DNA of 12,639 nucleotides from a virus. Taxonomy: Duplodnaviria; Heunggongvirae; Uroviricota; Caudoviricetes. The stretch is taken from IMG/VR virus record IMGVR_UViG_2740892258_000015, positions 1 to 12,639 of that record; one strand, written 5' to 3'. Positions 1 to 6,753 of this stretch are shown piece by piece (positions within the stretch are counted from its first letter, which is position 1; every line of letters starts with the position of its first letter). The translations under genes and the position numbers were made by a program. Under the pieces are notes generated by a model, which did no database searches, had not been told where the DNA came from, and saw only the letters and a program-made list of their open reading frames with translations.

Positions 1-516
1 ATGAAATTTAAAAAATGTCTTCTGCCTGTGGCAATGTTAGCGTCATTCACTCTGGCAGGATGCCAGTCAAATGCTGATGATCATGCCGCCGATGTTTATC
101 AAACCGATCAACTGAATACCAAACAAGAAACTAAAACCGTTAATATTATTTCCATTCTTCCCGCAAAAGTTGCCGTAGACAACGCCCAAAATAAACGGAA
201 CGCACAAGCCTTCGGCGCGCTTATTGGCGCTGTCGCTGGCGGTGTTATCGGCCACAACGTCGGGTCTGGCAGCAATTCCGGAACGACGGCAGGTGCAGTT
301 GGCGGCGGAGCTGTAGGCGCGGCAGCGGGTTCTATGGTGAATGATAAAACCTTAGTGGAAGGTGTTTCTTTAACATATAAGGAAGGCACCAAAGTGTATA
401 CCTCCACCCAGGTGGGTAAAGAGTGCCAGTTTACGACAGGTTTAGCCGTTGTTATTACCACGACGTATAACGAAACGCGTATTCAGCCAAATACCAAATG
501 TCCTGAAAAGAGCTAA
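1..516 (+). CDS. Lipoprotein with glycine-zipper motif (SlyB/YcfJ-like envelope protein)
   Basis: ATG at window position 1. Signal peptide with lipobox LAGC (MKFKKCLLPVAMLASFTLAGC). Gly/Ala-rich stretch GALIGAVAGGVIGHNVGSG..GAVGGGAVGAAAG typical of glycine-zipper outer-membrane lipoproteins. Family call from memory of YcfJ/SlyB-type sequences. Confidence 0.7.
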   Translation: MKFKKCLLPVAMLASFTLAGCQSNADDHAADVYQTDQLNTKQETKTVNIISILPAKVAVDNAQNKRNAQAFGALIGAVAGGVIGHNVGSGSNSGTTAGAVGGGAVGAAAGSMVNDKTLVEGVSLTYKEGTKVYTSTQVGKECQFTTGLAVVITTTYNETRIQPNTKCPEKS

Positions 517-531
517 TAATCAGGAGGAGTC

Positions 532-1071
532 ATGAAGAAAGTTTTTCTTTGCGCCATCTTAGCCTCCTTAAGCTATCCGGCTATCGCCTCATCATTGCAG
601 GATCAACTCTCGGCTGTCGCAGAAGCGGAACAGCAAGGTAAAAATGAAGAGCAAAGGCAGCATGACGAATGGGTCGCGGAGCGCAACAGGGAAATCCAGC
701 AAGAGAAGCAACGTCGCGCAAACGCCCAGGCCGCGGCTAATAAAAGAGCGGCAACGGCAGCAGCGAATAAGAAAGCTCGTCAGGATAAACTGGACGCCGA
801 AGCCACTGCGGACAAAAAACGCGATCAAAGTTATGAAGATGAGCTACGTAGCTTAGAGATTCAGAAACAAAAACTGGCGCTGGCGAAAGAAGAAGCCCGC
901 GTCAAGCGCGAAAACGAATTTATCGATCAGGAACTGAAGCACAAAGCTGCGCAAACCGATGTGGTGCAATCTGAAGCTGACGCAAACAGAAATATGACTG
1001 AAGGCGGTCGCGATCTGATGAAAAGCGTGGGTAAAGCAGAAGAGAATAAATCAGATAGCTGGTTTAACTAA
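532..1071 (+). CDS. Secreted lysine/glutamate-rich coiled-coil protein, function unknown
   Basis: Strong RBS AGGAGG 6 nt upstream of the ATG. N-terminal signal peptide (MKKVFLCAILASLSYPAIASS). Highly charged low-complexity body. Followed by a hairpin terminator. Confidence 0.6.
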   Translation: MKKVFLCAILASLSYPAIASSLQDQLSAVAEAEQQGKNEEQRQHDEWVAERNREIQQEKQRRANAQAAANKRAATAAANKKARQDKLDAEATADKKRDQSYEDELRSLEIQKQKLALAKEEARVKRENEFIDQELKHKAAQTDVVQSEADANRNMTEGGRDLMKSVGKAEENKSDSWFN

Positions 1072-1109
1072 ACGATGTTAGTAACTTCAAACCTATAATT
1101 CTTTAGGAT

Positions 1110-1140
1110 AAAAAAACCCTCTGTAGTAACAGAGGGTTTT
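1110..1140. terminator. Bidirectional intrinsic terminator between the convergent envelope genes and the lysis cassette
   Basis: A7 run (1110-1116), stem ccctctg (1117-1123), loop tagtaa, stem cagaggg (1130-1136), then tttt (1137-1140). Gives a U7 tract on the minus strand and U4 on the plus strand. Confidence 0.6.
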
Positions 1141-1289
1141 GTTCATTCATAGTGCAGGGTCAAATCATTCCCACTCAATTATTTACGACAACCATAACCA
1201 ATTGAGTGATAACATTTTTCCAAATCTCAATTTTTCCCGTACCGTTTTATATACCGTCACCGGAAATCAGTACCATGAAAAATGCCATG

Positions 1290-1772
1290 CTATCTGGTCA
1301 AAGTGTCGTACTGTTTTTCGCAGACTCTTCCGGCTTCGGCTGCCCGGTCAGCATACTCTGCCAGTTGTCTGTTTCTCTCGAGAGATTTGCTGAGCACGTC
1401 GGCAAGCAAAACTCCGGTGTCTGCGGCTGACGACCCAGCGCCGACAATGGCGTTATACTGCCTGAGCTGCTCACGGATGGCAAAGAGTTGTTGCTGCAAC
1501 CGGCCAGCGCTAGCGGCAGCATCAAGAGCATCATTGCGCGCCTGGTCGATCCTCTGCTGAGCTTCACGTTCATTGGTCACTTTCTCCTGTTCGTAGTACT
1601 GACGAACTTTGTCTTCTTCGGCTTTGCTGTCTTCTTCCGCCTGAGCATACCCGGCATCGTACTGGCGACTGCCGTGTATATTCCAGGCAACCACTCCTGA
1701 TATGACCAGAACAGCAAGCACTGCCACGATAAGAAACTGTTTCCAGTATGCTTTTACGAATGCCCAGATCAT
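1290..1772 (-). CDS. Rz-like inner-membrane spanin (i-spanin)
   Basis: N-terminal TM segment ([18 protein letters not shown]) followed by a long charged coiled-coil region with a C-terminal Cys. Its ATG (1772-1770) overlaps the endolysin stop as ATGA. It is the last gene of the lysis cassette. Confidence 0.7.
1298..1573 (-). CDS. Rz1-like outer-membrane lipoprotein spanin (o-spanin), embedded in the Rz gene in a different frame
   Basis: Lies wholly inside the Rz ORF in a shifted frame. RBS AGGAGA 9 nt upstream of the ATG at 1573. Lipoprotein signal with charged n-region and lipobox LAGC ([26 protein letters not shown]). Predicted mature part is proline-containing. Confidence 0.6.
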   Translation of the reverse strand: MNVKLSRGSTRRAMMLLMLPLALAGCSNNSLPSVSSSGSITPLSALGRQPQTPEFCLPTCSANLSRETDNWQSMLTGQPKPEESAKNSTTL

Positions 1773-2398
1773 ACCGCCAGCACCTTACTGGCAGTGATGT
1801 ACCGCGCTCGCCGGTCGTCGATGCCGTTCCGGCCACCATTGATAATCAGAGTTACACGTGCAATATCGCCGGTATACTTCATGCATCCTTTGCTGGCGAA
1901 GAACCACGCCGCGCTACGAGCCGCATATTCGTCCTGCGCCAGCAGTTCAGGGCTCTCCAGCAGGTCAACCTTCAGACCGTTTCCGCAATCACGATAGTTA
2001 TTCAAACCGGTAATCTGGATAAGTCCGCGCCCTCGGTAATTCCAGCCATCACCAGGGGCATTGTTCCCCATGCGTTTGCTGTATACCAGATTTGCGATCG
2101 CGCGCTGGCGCTCAAGTGGCAATGGTGGTTCACCAGCACGGCGCCCCAGTGCATTAGCCTGCCCCTGAGTGAGACGCCCAGCCCGAACGAAGTTAGCCAG
2201 TCCGCTGACACTGTAGTTGAAATTCTCCTGCAACCTGGTGAAGCCCCCAGACTCATGCCCGACTTGAGCAATAAACATTGCCTGATCTTCTGCTTTGCTG
2301 ATACCAAACTCTTTCATCGCAGAAGTTATATGCGAGAACCAGCGTGCGGCCAGTGCCTCGCTGATACCAGCAGCTCGCTGGAATTGTTTAATCTCCAT
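1769..2398 (-). CDS. Endolysin, glycoside hydrolase family 19 (chitinase-like lysozyme)
   Basis: Internal ATG at 2398 with RBS GAGGT 6 nt upstream; the longer track ORF to 2563 has no RBS. Motifs QVGHESGGF and [11 protein letters not shown] are characteristic of GH19 phage endolysins (from memory). Flanked by holin and spanin genes. Confidence 0.8.
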
Positions 2399-2696
2399 GT
2401 TTAGACCTCGATACTTTAAAAATTTGAACGACGTTACCGCGCGTTTTAATAACCGCAGCCAGCATGACAGCGTTGATAATGACCTCAGATAAATCCACAG
2501 CCATTGGCGTACGTAACCAGATTGCATAGGCGACTCGAACAGGAATACTGGCCGCAGCAACAATCAGGAAATAAGCAAGCCATCCTCCCCACCTTCGATG
2601 TTGAGAGCCGTTACGCCGGAATGTGACAACGCGAATTGCTATGCCAGTGCAAATAACTGCATTAGTGATAAGCAAAAAAAACTCATGCGTTACCAT
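2388..2696 (-). CDS. Small membrane protein in the lysis cassette (possible second holin or antiholin)
   Basis: Three hydrophobic segments and a basic C-terminus. ATG at 2696 with a GGAG-containing upstream sequence. Overlaps the holin stop by 14 bp and the endolysin start by 11 bp. No family recognised. Confidence 0.4.
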
Positions 2697-3087
2697 CGTC
2701 TTTTCTCCCCGGAATTAACTCGCGTGGATTATCGGAACGGTGATAGAGCCATATACCAATACGCACAGCGACAATTGCTGACACGAATGCGCCTGCAGAG
2801 AAAACAATCCCTTTTTCAAAAGAGTCCTGCGTGATGGTAGGGATCAGGCTGGCTATGCCGATAAGAATTGATGCTGCTGGTTTGTAAAAGAGAAGGCCGC
2901 AAAGAAAGCTGAGCATCGACAGGAGCACCCGGCGACGGATGGGGTACTCTACTGCAGAGGTAACAAAAATTACCGCCCCAGCCAAAGCCCCTAAAGCAAC
3001 CTCCGGAGGGACACCTGCAATAACTGCAGCAAGAGAACCAAAACTAAGCAACTGATTTAATTGCTCACTTGTTACTTGAGCAGACAT
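2683..3087 (-). CDS. Putative holin (multi-TM membrane protein with charged C-terminus)
   Basis: ATG at 3087 with RBS AGGAGA. Four to five hydrophobic helices and a charged tail ([19 protein letters not shown]). First gene of the lysis cassette, directly upstream of the endolysin. Confidence 0.55.
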   Translation of the reverse strand: MSAQVTSEQLNQLLSFGSLAAVIAGVPPEVALGALAGAVIFVTSAVEYPIRRRVLLSMLSFLCGLLFYKPAASILIGIASLIPTITQDSFEKGIVFSAGAFVSAIVAVRIGIWLYHRSDNPRELIPGRKDDGNA

Positions 3088-3368
3088 ACTTTCTCCTGTT
3101 TACTATCTATAAGCCAGTCAATTATTGATGACTAAACCCGCATAGTAAACCATATATGAATCATTATTGTTCCATATCATATATCTCAATAAAAGTACTA
3201 ATGATTTTACAGAACGAGCCAGCAGAGTGGGGGCAGTTGTACAGGAACCATAGACTTAATTTTGTATTTAATAATGCTATGGTGTAATAAACCTGAACAT
3301 GTATTTAAAATACGTACTGATTCATGATAGAATTCAAAGATAACTTTTCACCAACTCCGTTTTTGATA

Positions 3369-3395
3369 CCCGCAATATTTTGCGGGCTTTTTTTT
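3369..3395 (+). terminator. Intrinsic terminator oriented for the plus strand, inside the regulatory region upstream of the lysis genes
   Basis: Stem cccgcaa (3369-3375), loop tatt, stem ttgcggg (3380-3386), then a T8 run (3388-3395). On the minus strand the hairpin is followed by UAUCAAAAA, so it is weak in that direction. Confidence 0.5.
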
Positions 3396-3425
3396 AACGT
3401 TCTTCCAGAGACTGAACCCGCTCTT

Positions 3426-3878
3426 TTATCTTATCCATTTCTCTGCGCTGCCATGCTGCCTCGATATAGAATAAGAGATCAGGTCTGACCCCTCTTGGGC
3501 CACCAGATTTTTTGCAGCTTCTATAGCAGCATCCACCCCCTGCGCCCGTACTTCAGCCAAGAAAGCGTCGGTGGCTGTGGTTTCGATATCGTTAATTTCA
3601 GGAAGAATCTCTTCCCATGTAGCGATATCGCCATTCAAATGCCATCCGGCAATTCCACTGGAGTTATCCGCAACACTGCGAACGGCTTCAATAGTTTCAT
3701 GCATTGCCTCATTCTCCGCTGCCAGCGCATTAGCACGCACCAGTTGCACTTCCAGTTGCGTTGCCAAATCGCTGATCAGCTTTGCCACACTGCGCATATC
3801 AACGGCACCACATTCTGCTTTCAGTTCCGAAGCCATCTCATGCCCGGCGGCAACTAACCCTTTGATATTACTTTCCAT
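3426..3878 (-). CDS. Hypothetical strongly acidic protein (150 aa) in the position normally held by antiterminator Q
   Basis: RBS GAGGG 5 nt upstream of the ATG at 3878. By my count about 25 Asp+Glu against 11 Lys+Arg. Only one Cys, so no zinc finger. No family recognised. Confidence 0.5.
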   Translation of the reverse strand: MESNIKGLVAAGHEMASELKAECGAVDMRSVAKLISDLATQLEVQLVRANALAAENEAMHETIEAVRSVADNSSGIAGWHLNGDIATWEEILPEINDIETTATDAFLAEVRAQGVDAAIEAAKNLVAQEGSDLISYSISRQHGSAEKWIR

Positions 3879-3939
3879 CTTTACCCTCGCTTATCCACAT
3901 AACTTATTGATTACATTGATAACTAAAAAGATCGTCGAT

Positions 3940-4287
3940 TCAGAACTCTTCGATGTTCCAGCCACCACCTGCTTTCTTTGGCTTAACCGTTACCCCGATG
4001 ATTCGGAACGGATACTGATCTGCGGCGACTTTGGTTTTCACTCTGGCGTCATCGGTCCAGAATCCCCCTTTCACTTCGTGCAGTTCCATCTCGCCGGTGG
4101 CGAGCATCACAGCAAAATCTGGCGTATAGAACGTGTTGTCAGCTAACCGCAGCTTGATACCCTCAAATCGATACCAGACGATTTCTCCTGCACGTTTACG
4201 CAGCTCAAGGTGCTGGCAATACGCAGATTCTGTTTTGTTCATCTGGCCTGTTTTGAGTCGACCAAGAGCCTGCATCTGTTTTCTCAT
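3940..4287 (-). CDS. PD-(D/E)xK-type nuclease, DUF1064-like (nin-region resolvase-like protein)
   Basis: RBS AAGGGG upstream of the ATG at 4287. Motif YTPDF...ELHEVKG fits a PD...(D/E)xK catalytic core. Size and position (between P and the late region) match nin-region nucleases of lambdoid phages. Family name is from memory. Confidence 0.55.
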   Translation of the reverse strand: MRKQMQALGRLKTGQMNKTESAYCQHLELRKRAGEIVWYRFEGIKLRLADNTFYTPDFAVMLATGEMELHEVKGGFWTDDARVKTKVAADQYPFRIIGVTVKPKKAGGGWNIEEF

Positions 4288-4290
4288 GAT

Positions 4291-4368
4291 TTACCCCTTA
4301 GGTAATTAAAAACCACATAAGACACGAAATCAATAGATTTTAGAATATTTTATTACCTCTAAGGTAAT
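4291..4368 (-). promoter_or_regulatory. Operator-flanked promoter for the nuclease/acidic-protein operon
   Basis: Two TTACC-N5-GGTAA palindromes at 4291-4305 and 4354-4368. On the minus strand: -35 TTGATT (4328-4333), 17-bp spacer, -10 TTTAAT (4305-4310) overlapping the proximal operator. Same layout as the promoter at 7396-7472. Confidence 0.45.
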
Positions 4369-4369
4369 T

Positions 4370-4389
4370 ATCGAGACGTAAAAAAATGC
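4370..4389 (-). terminator. Weak candidate terminator after the P-like gene
   Basis: Short GC stem gcgc/gcgc (4378-4389) followed on the minus strand by a U7 tract (plus-strand A run 4370-4376). The stem is only 4 bp. Confidence 0.25.
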
Positions 4390-4404
4390 GCTATCGCGCT
4401 GGTA

Positions 4405-5205
4405 TTACTTGATAAATCCTGACGCCTTTCCCCGCCTGTATTCCTCCATCAGCCACTGCGCCGGTGTTATTCCCCCAAGGGTGGCGGCGTTAGGCATGCA
4501 CCCGAAACTTCGCCCTGGTGGATGGTAAACGTCTCTCCCTGTGTCCGGAGGCGTACTCATGGGTTCTGGCTTTGCCTGTATGCTGATCACCGGATCGGGT
4601 ATCTGCTGTCCGGAAGCCACCTTTTTCGCCCAATCATCGAGCAGCCTGCGCGCGTGTTTCTCAACCTCAATCTCGCTAAGCTGGCGCTGATACATTGCAC
4701 GGCGGGTATCACATACGACCCAGTACATAACCGGATGTCGCCACGGGAATCTTTCGGGACCACCAGGATATAAACTTTTTTCCTTGCTGTACCGGTGAAA
4801 CTCCGCCATCACATCGTCAATGGTGACGCCAAGAACCATCTTGCTGTCTTTACACCACTTGATGAATTGCCCTGGCGACGGCCAGAACGGAGACTCACTG
4901 GCGCGGGCGTGGCGCATACCAGCAGAAACCTGTTCACGGGTTCGGATCCCCCCTTCGGCAAACGCAGCAATCCACTGCTGTTTTGCAGCAACTTCCTGCT
5001 CTGGCGTCTTCAGGTTGGTTACCACTGCCGCCGGAAACAGTTGTTTCAGCTGTTTGAAAAGGGCATCAACAAGCCTCTCTGCTGACATGTTCACCACGTT
5101 GTCATTGTTGGTGTACTGATGCTCATAACCTGACATGCGAGAAAGGGCTTCTCCGTCACGGTTTTGTATCGCGGTAAAAACGTTGTTCACAAGAAATCCT
5201 CCCAT
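4405..5205 (-). CDS. Replication protein P-like (DnaB helicase loader)
   Basis: Segment LFKQLKQLFPAA..QQWIAAFAEGGIRTREQVSAGMRHAR..PFWPSPGQFIKWCKD parallels lambda P (..TFPAS..RRQWVLAFRENGITTMEQVNAGMRVARRQNRPFLPSPGQFVAWCRE, recalled from memory). Start overlaps the O-like gene by 19 bp. Confidence 0.8.
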   Translation of the reverse strand: MGGFLVNNVFTAIQNRDGEALSRMSGYEHQYTNNDNVVNMSAERLVDALFKQLKQLFPAAVVTNLKTPEQEVAAKQQWIAAFAEGGIRTREQVSAGMRHARASESPFWPSPGQFIKWCKDSKMVLGVTIDDVMAEFHRYSKEKSLYPGGPERFPWRHPVMYWVVCDTRRAMYQRQLSEIEVEKHARRLLDDWAKKVASGQQIPDPVISIQAKPEPMSTPPDTGRDVYHPPGRSFGCMPNAATLGGITPAQWLMEEYRRGKASGFIK

Positions 5206-6002
5206 GCTTCAGGGCTGTTCCAGTGCGGAACGTTGTTATCAGGTAATGTTGATTGCTTCTGTCTGCTAATCTGCAGCCGCCTTGCCAGCTTCTGCTCCCA
5301 CTGTGCCTGATGGTATGCCTTACCCTCAGCCATCCAGTAAATTCTGAACTCTGCAAGTTCCTGTGCCGTTGGCAGACTGTCCAGGCAGATCCCCTGCAAT
5401 GAGCTTTTCCGAAGAAAGTCATCTGATGGCTGCCATTGTTCATGCATGACAAATTTGCCTAATTGCCCTGGCCCACCAGGAGGAACAAAGTTATTCATCA
5501 CGGCGTTGTTTGCGCCGGGGTCATGATGCACAGAATCCCCGTTTTTTGTCCTGCTCTCCCTCTCTTGGTTAAATGACTGGTTATATGACTGGTTCTGGAT
5601 CCCGTTTTTGGGATCATTCAACATCCCGTTTTTGGGATCATTCAACATCCCGTTTTTGGGTATATTCCCGTTTTCGGTAACATTACCGTTTTCGGGTTCA
5701 TTGCCCCCCTCTCGGTTGCCTTTAATGTTCCCGTTTTTGGTTATATTAAGAGAGAAAACCCGCACTCTTTTTGTCGCTCCCTTTCTCTCCCCGGTATCTG
5801 AAATAAGCCCCATTTTCATGAGCGATATAAGTCCGGCCTGCACGGTTTTTTTATTCAGGCAAGTGTCTTTAACGAGGCGTTCTATGCTGGGGTAGCAGAG
5901 GTTATATTCATCGGCTCTGTCAGCCATCGAGAGCAGTATGAGCTTTAATGACGAGCTACCTGGATCTGTCTCCCAGGCCCAATCTGTTGCATGTCTGCTC
6001 AT
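5187..6002 (-). CDS. Replication initiator protein O-like (origin-binding)
   Basis: RBS GGAG 7 nt upstream of the ATG at 6002. N-terminal HTH-type replication-initiator domain. A central Asn/Gly-rich repeat is encoded by the iterons. C-terminal FVMHEQWQPSDDF..YWMAEGKAYHQAQWEQKLARRLQISR resembles the lambda O C-terminal P-interaction domain. Confidence 0.8.
   Translation of the reverse strand: MSRHATDWAWETDPGSSSLKLILLSMADRADEYNLCYPSIERLVKDTCLNKKTVQAGLISLMKMGLISDTGERKGATKRVRVFSLNITKNGNIKGNREGGNEPENGNVTENGNIPKNGMLNDPKNGMLNDPKNGIQNQSYNQSFNQERESRTKNGDSVHHDPGANNAVMNNFVPPGGPGQLGKFVMHEQWQPSDDFLRKSSLQGICLDSLPTAQELAEFRIYWMAEGKAYHQAQWEQKLARRLQISRQKQSTLPDNNVPHWNSPEAWEDFL
5598..5745. repeat. Iteron array (putative phage origin of replication) inside the O-like gene
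   Basis: Six copies of core YCCGTTTTYGG starting at 5600, 5624, 5648, 5666, 5684 and 5729. The first two are perfect 18-bp palindromes (gatcccgtttttgggatc) containing GATC sites. An adjacent direct repeat atgactggtt occurs twice (5573-5582, 5585-5594). Confidence 0.7.
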
Positions 6003-6017
6003 GATTAATCTCCGCTA

Positions 6018-6218
6018 TCAGCTTGAATGTTGTGGGGAGGAATTAATCATGATCTGCTTAATCTCTGCCCTGATACGACGGTTTGATTCCATGGTGCACT
6101 CAACACAGTGTCCGTTGTAAACCCAGCGTTCACTGTCATGTCCGTGCTTACATGTTTTTCCGGTGTAGTAGCGTTTAAGTCCGCGCTTTGCGGCATCAAT
6201 ACGTGTAATGATTTCCAT
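6018..6218 (-). CDS. Small Cys/His-containing protein (possible zinc ribbon) in the cII position
   Basis: Internal ATG at 6218 chosen over the longer track ORF. Motif CKHGH...HCVEC. Lies between the Cro-like gene and O. Possible promoter and a TTACC-N5-GGTAC operator lie upstream (6253-6313). Confidence 0.4.
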   Translation of the reverse strand: MEIITRIDAAKRGLKRYYTGKTCKHGHDSERWVYNGHCVECTMESNRRIRAEIKQIMINSSPQHSS

Positions 6219-6320
6219 GGTAAGCCCTGTTATTAGTATTGGGATTACGGTCATTTTGTGCTGACACAAAAAAAAGATCAACCAGATTTGGTTTTTTATT
6301 ACCTTTGAGGTACGAATAGA

Positions 6321-6346
6321 TATGAAAAGACCGCCGGATGGCGGTC
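6321..6346 (-). terminator. Candidate terminator after the Cro-like gene (tR1-like)
   Basis: Stem gaccgcc (6329-6335), loop ggat, stem ggcggtc (6340-6346); followed on the minus strand by UUUUC. Confidence 0.4.
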
Positions 6347-6368
6347 TACAGAGGGTTGTGGCTGGATA

Positions 6369-6599
6369 TCATGAGTAGAAGAAGTATGCCAATTCTGCTT
6401 TTGAGCGCAGCCATTGTCTTGTTTTACAGGCTTTAAAAAGCCCATTCATCAATACCTTACCTGGCATTTTGCGCTTACCTGTTAAGTGAGTCTGGATATA
6501 GTGACTCGTCGTTCCGGCTTCCTGTGCGAAGGCTTCACGCTCATCCGGAGTAAGTGCAAGCCAGTGCTTTTTGAAATCGAAATGTCCGTTATCGCTCAT
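6369..6599 (-). CDS. Cro-like HTH regulator (YdaS/Cro-type)
   Basis: 76 aa with HTH-like segment EAFAQEAGTTSHYIQTHLTGKRKMP. Transcribed divergently from the repressor across an operator-rich intergenic region. Heads the leftward cluster (small Cys/His protein, O, P); a terminator and a second promoter lie between it and those genes. Confidence 0.55.
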   Translation of the reverse strand: MSDNGHFDFKKHWLALTPDEREAFAQEAGTTSHYIQTHLTGKRKMPGKVLMNGLFKACKTRQWLRSKAELAYFFYS

Positions 6600-6630
6600 A
6601 GCTATTGCCTGATATTTATTTCAGATAATA

Positions 6631-6701
6631 AATATTCACCCATAAGGTAACAAAAATCAAGGATAGTTACCTGTGGGGTGCATTTACCTGTTGGGTAATA
6701 T
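6631..6701. promoter_or_regulatory. Divergent immunity-region operator/promoter (OR-like)
   Basis: Operators TCACC-N5-GGTAA (6636-6650) and TTACC-N5-GGTAA (6684-6698), plus a wider GGTAAC-N14-GTTACC dyad (6646-6671). Minus-strand promoter for the Cro-like gene: -35 TTGATT (6655-6660), 18-bp spacer, -10 AATATT (6631-6636). Possible -10 TAATAT (6696-6701) toward the repressor. Confidence 0.5.
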
Positions 6702-6753
6702 TGCTTTAAATTGAATCATCTACTGATTCATATACGAGGCGATTTTCCAGAAA

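Follow-up and report, generated by a model that had tools for sequence, protein, structure and literature searches.

Does a cluster of short repeats in the middle of a phage gene serve the DNA, the message or the encoded protein? The question is raised by a stretch of 12,639 nucleotides (nt) from a virus of the Caudoviricetes (IMG/VR virus record IMGVR_UViG_2740892258_000015, positions 1 to 12,639; hereafter, the window), in which six same-orientation copies of the core CCGTTTTYGG occupy 5598-5747 of the plus strand, inside a minus-strand gene for a replication initiator. The array of repeats, or iterons, probably serves a temperate phage or prophage of the phiV10 type (Uetakevirus) as its replication origin, located where the initiator gene encodes a linker, and as such it would provide a precise, testable origin for prophages of the phiV10/Uetakevirus type. 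An origin-like array within the initiator gene, paralleling that of phage lambda (ori-lambda), had been suggested in an initial annotation made from the sequence alone. It is now supported by the layout of the initiator and lambda-P-type genes, by conservation at the DNA level, by co-inheritance with the N-terminal domain (N-domain) of the initiator, and by a second conserved element composed of 12- or 13-base pair (bp) units.

The iteron array, the 12-mers and the initiator gene

The gene, the array and its companion elements are arranged as follows, with protein positions in amino acids (aa):

5187..6002, minus strand: replication initiator gene, 271 aa, with a winged-helix HTH_36 N-domain (aa 1-89), a linker (aa 90-185) and a DnaT-type C-terminal domain (C-domain; aa ~180-265) that binds single-stranded DNA (ssDNA)
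5535..5551, minus strand: candidate degenerate half-site beyond the 12-mers, ATCCCCGTTTTTTGTCC / ATCCCCGTTTTTTG, adjoining a purine-rich run of the coding strand; membership in the origin uncertain
5559..5594, minus strand: tandem 12-bp units, read on the coding strand as AACCAGTCATAT, AACCAGTCATTT and the degenerate AACCAAGAGAGG; the window's version of the family's GAAYC 12/13-mer element
5598..5615, minus strand: iteron 1, GATCCCGTTTTTGGGATC; nearest the 12-mers, last in the direction of the gene, GATC at both ends
5622..5639, minus strand: iteron 2, CATCCCGTTTTTGGGATC; same 24-bp unit as iteron 1, one GATC
5646..5663, minus strand: iteron 3, CATCCCGTTTTTGGGTAT
5664..5681, minus strand: iteron 4, ATTCCCGTTTTCGGTAAC; 18-bp unit type
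5682..5699, minus strand: iteron 5, ATTACCGTTTTCGGGTTC; 18-bp unit type
5727..5744, minus strand: iteron 6, GTTCCCGTTTTTGGTTAT; an outlier, 45 bp from iteron 5, overlapping the last winged-helix codons

The iteron cores begin at 5602, 5626, 5650, 5668, 5686 and 5731, with start-to-start distances of 24, 24, 18, 18 and 45 bp. When one mismatch is allowed, the motif YCCGTTTTYGG has 8 matches in the window against 0.94 expected, and the array is far above chance, since at least 8 matches were attained in 0 of 200 shuffles. On the coding strand, the core reads CC-(A/G)AAAAC-GG and is framed in the best copies by ATCCC...GGGAT arms. These inverted arms measure 6 bp and 5 bp in the two best copies and are shorter in the other four, several iterons retaining just 2-3 pairable arm positions. 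The initial annotation had listed six copies of YCCGTTTTYGG at these spacings and had taken the first two for perfect 18-bp palindromes with GATC at both ends. The count and spacing stand, although the exact motif fits five copies only, the fifth (ACCGTTTTCGG) starting with A rather than Y. None of the six window iterons is a perfect 18-bp palindrome: iteron 1 is self-complementary at 12 of 18 positions, with 6-bp arms and a non-palindromic GTTTTT spacer, and iteron 2 at 10 of 18, while GATC stands at both ends of the first copy alone. A candidate degenerate iteron (CCGAGAGGGG, coding strand) is also seen at ~5706-5715, in the 45 bp that separate iteron 5 from iteron 6.

Adjoining the array, 5566-5594 is made up of 2.4 tandem copies of a 12-bp unit, TGGTTAWATGAC. 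The direct repeat atgactggtt, reported earlier to occur twice beside the iterons, is indeed present as a tandem pair (5573-5582 and 5585-5594) within this unit, and it belongs to the second conserved element, the GAAYC 12/13-mers. The 12-mers of the window do not match the 13-mer consensus of the Escherichia coli chromosomal origin, oriC, and the one DnaA box in the window (at 3891) is at chance level and far from the array.

The iterons and 12-mers code for the linker only, the iteron-encoded stretch covering aa ~86-135 and reading as an Asn/Gly-rich peptide (...NEPENGNVTENGNIPKNGMLNDPKNGMLNDPKNGIQNQSYNQSFNQ...); translation and domain limits both bear out the earlier description of this segment. 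According to Pfam, HTH_36 lies at aa 18-67 and the DnaT DNA-binding domain (PF17948, 8e-16) at aa 184-252. An AlphaFold model, built from a 22-sequence alignment, contains a confident winged helix (aa 1-89; pLDDT 82-95), a linker with pLDDT ~30, and a helical C-domain. The latter matches DnaT structures in the PDB at E = 3e-21 with ~50-55% identity, in alignments that begin at DnaT residue 85, and it superposes on them with TM scores of 0.76-0.81. Fold searches with the N-domain returned generic winged-helix neighbours only (MarR/ArsR and, weakly, plasmid Rep N-domains; E >= 0.02) and gave no specific family assignment. The window initiator has no Pfam match to Phage_rep_O (PF04492), which lambda O itself matches at 5.7e-36. 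The name "O-like" used in the initial annotation is therefore apt for function and layout but not for family, as the N-domain is HTH_36 and the C-domain DnaT-type.

Database records call the gene a "putative primosomal protein", a "DnaT-like ssDNA-binding domain-containing protein" and similar, and the GenBank/RefSeq records of it carry no origin or repeat annotation. Like the initiator, E. coli DnaT (primosomal protein 1) has a C-terminal, three-helix ssDNA-binding domain; its N-terminal domain (residues ~1-84), however, is not matched, a winged helix standing there in the window protein. The initiator is not DnaT, because only DnaT's C-domain is shared, and the names in use cover a third of the protein, since a winged helix and an origin linker replace the N-terminal half of DnaT.

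Inheritance of the array and the case for an origin

Domain shuffling is evident among phage records. Counterparts of residues 1 to ~145 of the initiator are found in Edwardsiella phage GF-2, Vibrio phage H20, Acinetobacter phage AP22 and the PPompW prophage; in SPN1S, Tyrion and TL-2011b, it is residues ~161-271 that have counterparts, joined there to unrelated N-termini. The comparison with related phages that the initial annotation had recommended separates the two groups: repeats with the same core lie in the same place in 4 of 4 N-domain sharers (CCCAAAATTGGG, CCGAAAACGG, CCCAAAAACGG), and iteron arrays are present in 0 of 3 that share the C-domain only. Downstream partner genes among the relatives encode a lambda-P protein, a DnaC/IstB-type loader or a DnaB-type helicase. 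By these comparisons, inheritance of the array follows the N-domain and is independent of both C-domain and helicase partner, and the joining of N-domain plus array to varied partners is the familiar mosaic of lambdoid replication modules.

Two side observations concern individual phages of this comparison. The initiators without an array are those of SPN1S (L007 2030-2845), Tyrion (L008 2048-2815) and TL-2011b (L009 1982-2806), and the origins of these phages must differ in organisation or sit elsewhere. The GF-2 initiator (L003 2501-3343) combines this N-domain and array with a C-terminus that resembles, by eye in an alignment, that of lambda O, and is followed by a lambda-P gene; on that likeness it would be a natural hybrid between the two initiator types.

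A wider family set was assembled from 72 diverse genomic N-domain relatives in Gamma-, Beta-, Alpha- and Deltaproteobacteria and was subjected to a de novo repeat search of nt 200-650 of the open reading frame (ORF), with controls of equal length. At least 4 copies of some 10-mer, with one mismatch allowed, were found in 58 of 72 relatives, as opposed to 1 of 72 control regions upstream and 0 of 69 downstream. The median distance from start codon to array is 296 nt, and the most frequent spacings are 17, 22 and 24 bp. Directly after the last iteron, nearly all relatives carry two or three tandem units with the consensus GAAYCTAnCAAW. The density of RAAYC after the array is 2.73 per 70 bp against a background of 0.36, and at least two RAAYC follow the array in 57 of 64 distinct loci. 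Since the spacing of the GAAYC units is either 12 or 13 bp, they are free of any one reading frame. In loci L091-L170 the units lie ~10-80 nt past the last iteron, often with an A-rich run beyond them, and A+T content 20-80 bp past the array exceeds the locus mean by 8-9.5 points. No description of the GAAYCTAnCAAW tandem element was found in the searchable literature. Taken as an annotation signature, a winged-helix N-domain, 3-10 CC-N(4-6)-GG iterons ~300 nt into the gene, and then GAAYC 12/13-mers could be used to mark origins in many prophages.

The arrangement suggests how initiation might proceed. Dimers of the winged-helix N-domain would bind the six iterons, and the resulting nucleoprotein complex, together with transcription from a pR-like promoter, could destabilise the adjacent 12-mer segment, 5559-5594, which is proposed as the region of unwinding or single-strand capture. 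The DnaT-type C-domain might then bind the exposed single strand, dock the lambda-P-type protein, or both, and the P-type protein would bring the host DnaB helicase.

Several points weigh against the array being an origin. The segment next to the array (5560-5598) is just modestly A+T-rich, at ~59% versus 51% for the whole window, and much less so than its counterpart in lambda, being made instead of tandem 12-mers. It also falls outside the least stable 40-bp stretches of the window by nearest-neighbour stability (z ~+1.4). The purine strand asymmetry seen in lambda has no family-level signal, the match to a pR-like promoter consensus occurs at chance frequency, and BLASTP finds no significant similarity between the N-domain and lambda O. 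The searchable literature yielded no experiments showing binding or origin activity in this group of phages. Finally, all six iterons of the window share one reading frame. Two candidate features were also tried and rejected: a strong unwinding element by nearest-neighbour stability, the segment being mildly unstable only, and a lambda-like purine/pyrimidine asymmetry past the iterons, the window having a local 27-nt purine run only.

A rival possibility is that the iterons are true initiator sites that serve autoregulation, copy control or replication interference, with opening and helicase loading taking place elsewhere. The window's least stable stretches lie between genes (e.g., 4297-4349 and 3139-3315), as such an explanation might have it, the region next to the array being only weakly A+T-rich by comparison, and there is a precedent in Shiga toxin (Stx) phages, where extra iterons are weakly bound yet influence replication (PMC7466680). 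The family-wide order of array, 12/13-mers and A-rich run, however, is the iteron-plus-unwinding-element layout of known origins; the whole block travels with the N-domain across genomes and helicase partners, as would be expected of a self-contained origin; and no repeat cluster was found in the window besides the array region. Purely regulatory sites are thus an unlikely explanation.

DNA-level versus peptide-level repetition

With all six copies in frame, at spacings of 18, 24 and 45 bp, the window by itself cannot separate repetition of the DNA from repetition of the peptide. The array could accordingly be the product of slippage, an Asn/Gly-rich flexible linker selected or tolerated as protein, with no role for the DNA. 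Near-identical elements would seem to fit such an origin by slippage: among 76 of them in IMG/VR (L011-L090 minus L016 and L051, where the ORF stops early, and L018 and L019, where the sequence ends inside the gene), the elements have between 4 and 9 iterons, most often 6 (58 of 76), and always differ by whole, in-frame units of 18 or 24 bp. The 12-mers number 1-3 and the initiator varies in length from 263 to 295 aa; relative to the window, phiV10 has one extra 12-mer unit, and phage BP9 lacks one of the 24-bp iterons. Such changes in iteron and 12-mer number explain the variation in linker length between strains. The low modelling confidence of the array-encoded segment is likewise consistent with a disordered peptide.

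The diverse relatives speak clearly for the DNA. There the DNA motif recurs at spacings such as 17, 22 and 25 bp. Of the 66 arrays that have 3 or more copies, 56 spread them over two or three reading-frame phases of one ORF, and 35 over all three, and the copies are therefore not peptide repeats; in PPompW, for example, iterons 89 bp apart lie in different reading frames. The residues encoded at the repeat centre differ radically (KN, KI, IY, KF, EN), yet the DNA core stays CC-(A/T-rich)-GG. Of the family consensus iterons, 18% have inverted arms of 6 bp or more, as compared with 1.5% of shuffles, and the arms of subfamilies vary in mirrored fashion (GTCCCA...TGGGAC, GTACC...GGTAC, GATCCC...GGGATC, ACCCCC...GGGGGT), as expected for sites bound by dimers. 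A peptide repeat would need neither this inverted-repeat symmetry nor the exclusive use of a rare codon: each of the four prolines in the array is encoded by CCC, whereas five other window genes use that codon for just 6 of their 65 prolines. Repetition for the sake of the protein is, on these grounds, very unlikely.

That the inverted repeats act as mRNA hairpins governing the translation or stability of the initiator/P message is hardly credible: the sense RNA of 5550-5760 does fold far better than shuffles (z = -4.55), but good folding is expected of any inverted-repeat array, the arm mismatches lack a sense-strand preference for G.U (G-T 28 vs A-C 68), ~42% of single-copy arm positions are unpaired (a figure inflated by counting one position past each consensus arm) while the CC...GG core is conserved, and the few pairable positions in several window copies fit poorly with such a role.

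On the opposite strand, at 5609-5628 and 5633-5652 (plus strand), the right arm of each 24-bp iteron can pair with the left arm of the next, followed by a T5 run. The resulting terminator-like, antisense-strand hairpins are not above shuffles in number and are probably a by-product of iteron structure.

Known origins, methylation and genomic setting

In phage lambda, inverted-repeat iterons in the middle of gene O bind dimers of O and are followed by an A+T-rich region that opens (PMC5043065, PMC7466680). As in the window, the origin lies mid-gene and encodes an inter-domain linker, the iterons are direct repeats with inverted arms round an A-tract (lambda, ATCCCTCAAAACGAGGGAT; window coding strand, GATCCCAAAAACGGGATC) that have ATCCC...GGGAT in common, a segment that is A+T-richer, if only modestly so in the window, lies past them in the direction of transcription, a lambda-P family gene stands immediately downstream of the initiator gene, and the early operon stands downstream of a cro-like gene (PMC5043065, PMC7466680). 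There are also differences: HTH_36 replaces Phage_rep_O in the N-domain, a DnaT-type C-domain takes the place of that of O, CCC and GGG are 6 bp apart as against 9 bp in lambda, and the window has six iterons, all in one frame, where lambda has four. By function and layout, then, the proposed origin is of the lambda type, set in an initiator family other than Pfam lambda-O. As an unannotated example of a well-known kind of origin, it leaves the understanding of phage replication unchanged, and its practical value lies in prophage annotation.

Other systems share part of this design. The origins of the Stx phages 933W and P27 contain six iterons rather than four, the number varies, and the outer copies are weaker (PMC7466680); iteron number varies between related phages of the window group as well, though the Stx phages possess true lambda-O family initiators and lambda-type iterons. 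In Cellvibrionales and Oceanospirillales, the DopC/DopE proteins are encoded by resident, non-prophage chromosomal genes; iterons were reported to be absent from dopC, and the N-terminus of lambda O was reported from HHpred to be HTH_36-like as well (Brezellec et al. 2017; PMC5509034). Like the window pair, these genes specify an HTH_36 plus DnaT C-domain protein followed by a lambda-P-like product (PMC5509034), whereas the window pair sits in a prophage context and retains its iterons. The latter pair resembles the phage-borne form from which the DopC/DopE genes would have been domesticated, and supplies an iteron-bearing phage counterpart for them. The iterons of plasmids, unlike those of the window, are direct repeats to which monomers bind, and as a rule they lie outside the rep gene. 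Nonetheless, the iteron origins of plasmids P1, F, RK2 and R6K, as well as oriC, share with the window an array of initiator sites beside 12-13-bp opening units, with GATC in the origin (PMC5043065). The core sequence of the window iterons is cited nowhere in the searchable literature, which also holds no link of iterons to phiV10, epsilon15 or Uetakevirus, an earlier mention in the epsilon15 genome paper being possible.

The GATC sites had been thought to connect initiation with adenine methylation. Three of them lie in the array (5598, 5612 and 5636), and the origin region exceeds expectation (3 observed vs 0.75 expected; Poisson P = 0.04), although these sites are not independent, being derived from duplicated units; the whole window shows no enrichment (48 observed vs 49 expected). 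Among relatives from host orders taken to be Dam-positive, origins hold 38 GATC where 16.3 would be expected from the flanks, with at least 2 in 12 of 19 loci, as against 5 vs 29.6 expected in Acinetobacter and 4 vs 12.1 in other hosts, a comparison in which the loci are not phylogenetically independent. The sites occupy either the outer edge of the iteron arm, as in the window, or a AAAGATCTAAA motif after the array. The element's own methyltransferase was rejected as a participant: compared with phiV10 p33, its MT-A70 gene (10533-11194, plus strand) has lost 1 bp from an A-run near 10895 and so falls into two overlapping ORFs, and RefSeq flags the gene as frameshifted in the identical APEC O18 prophage, so that any methylation link would go via host Dam. 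The enrichment of origin GATC, seemingly confined to Dam-positive hosts, is suggestive and lends the methylation idea some substance, but the idea remains speculative.

As a side observation, a single AAAGATCT(A/T) motif lies past the array in Enterobacterales and Vibrio relatives (loci L098, L112, L134, L143, L145, L148, L151, L154, L159-L162 and L165), and the Acinetobacter relatives have almost no GATC in that region.

It is tempting, if on balance doubtful, to go further. The array and 12/13-mers may constitute a portable, self-contained origin module, defined by an HTH_36-type N-domain and distributed across Gamma-, Beta-, Alpha- and Deltaproteobacterial prophages, in which GAAYCTAnCAAW would act as a sequence-specific element for unwinding or single-strand capture, as opposed to mere A+T-richness. 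In Dam-positive hosts, GATC at the arm edges and in AAAGATCT might tie initiation, or re-initiation, to hemimethylation through Dam and SeqA, as in oriC and P1.

The neighbourhood of the initiator gene is composed of the following features:

4405..5205, minus strand: lambda-P family helicase-delivery protein gene (Pfam PF06992, Phage_lambda_P, E = 1.5e-56), overlapping the end of the initiator gene
6328..6347, minus strand: putative tR1-like intrinsic terminator, separating the cro-like gene from the replication genes; consensus match only
6625..6653, minus strand: putative pR-like sigma-70 promoter, TTGTTA-17-TATTAT, upstream of the cro-like gene; consensus match only
6754-7338, divergent from the initiator operon: helix-turn-helix (HTH) repressor gene

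Upstream of the initiator gene, on the same strand, are found in order a short gene, a terminator-like hairpin, a cro-sized gene and the pR-like match. Because this match lies upstream of the cro-like gene, transcription from it would cross the origin. The early operon appears lambda-like in this order, its promoter and terminator being predicted from consensus matches; in the phiV10 record, a putative terminator is annotated at the position equivalent to 6328..6347. The initiator gene is 97.6-99.8% identical to those of phiV10-type podophages of the genus Uetakevirus and is present in 424 of 5,426 complete E. coli genomes (~8%), nearly always on the chromosome. The window as a whole has a prophage context, with genes for an integrase, repressor, RecT, exonuclease and PerC. 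The PD-(D/E)XK exonuclease (DUF3799; 8146-8967) and RecT (8964-9845), both on the plus strand, are encoded by separate, overlapping genes, where the phiV10 record has one fused recET. Finally, 1-1071 (plus strand) contains two genes, for a glycine-zipper/TraT-like lipoprotein and a DUF5384 protein, that are unlike those at the equivalent position in phiV10 and APEC O18, pointing to a mosaic or cargo region.

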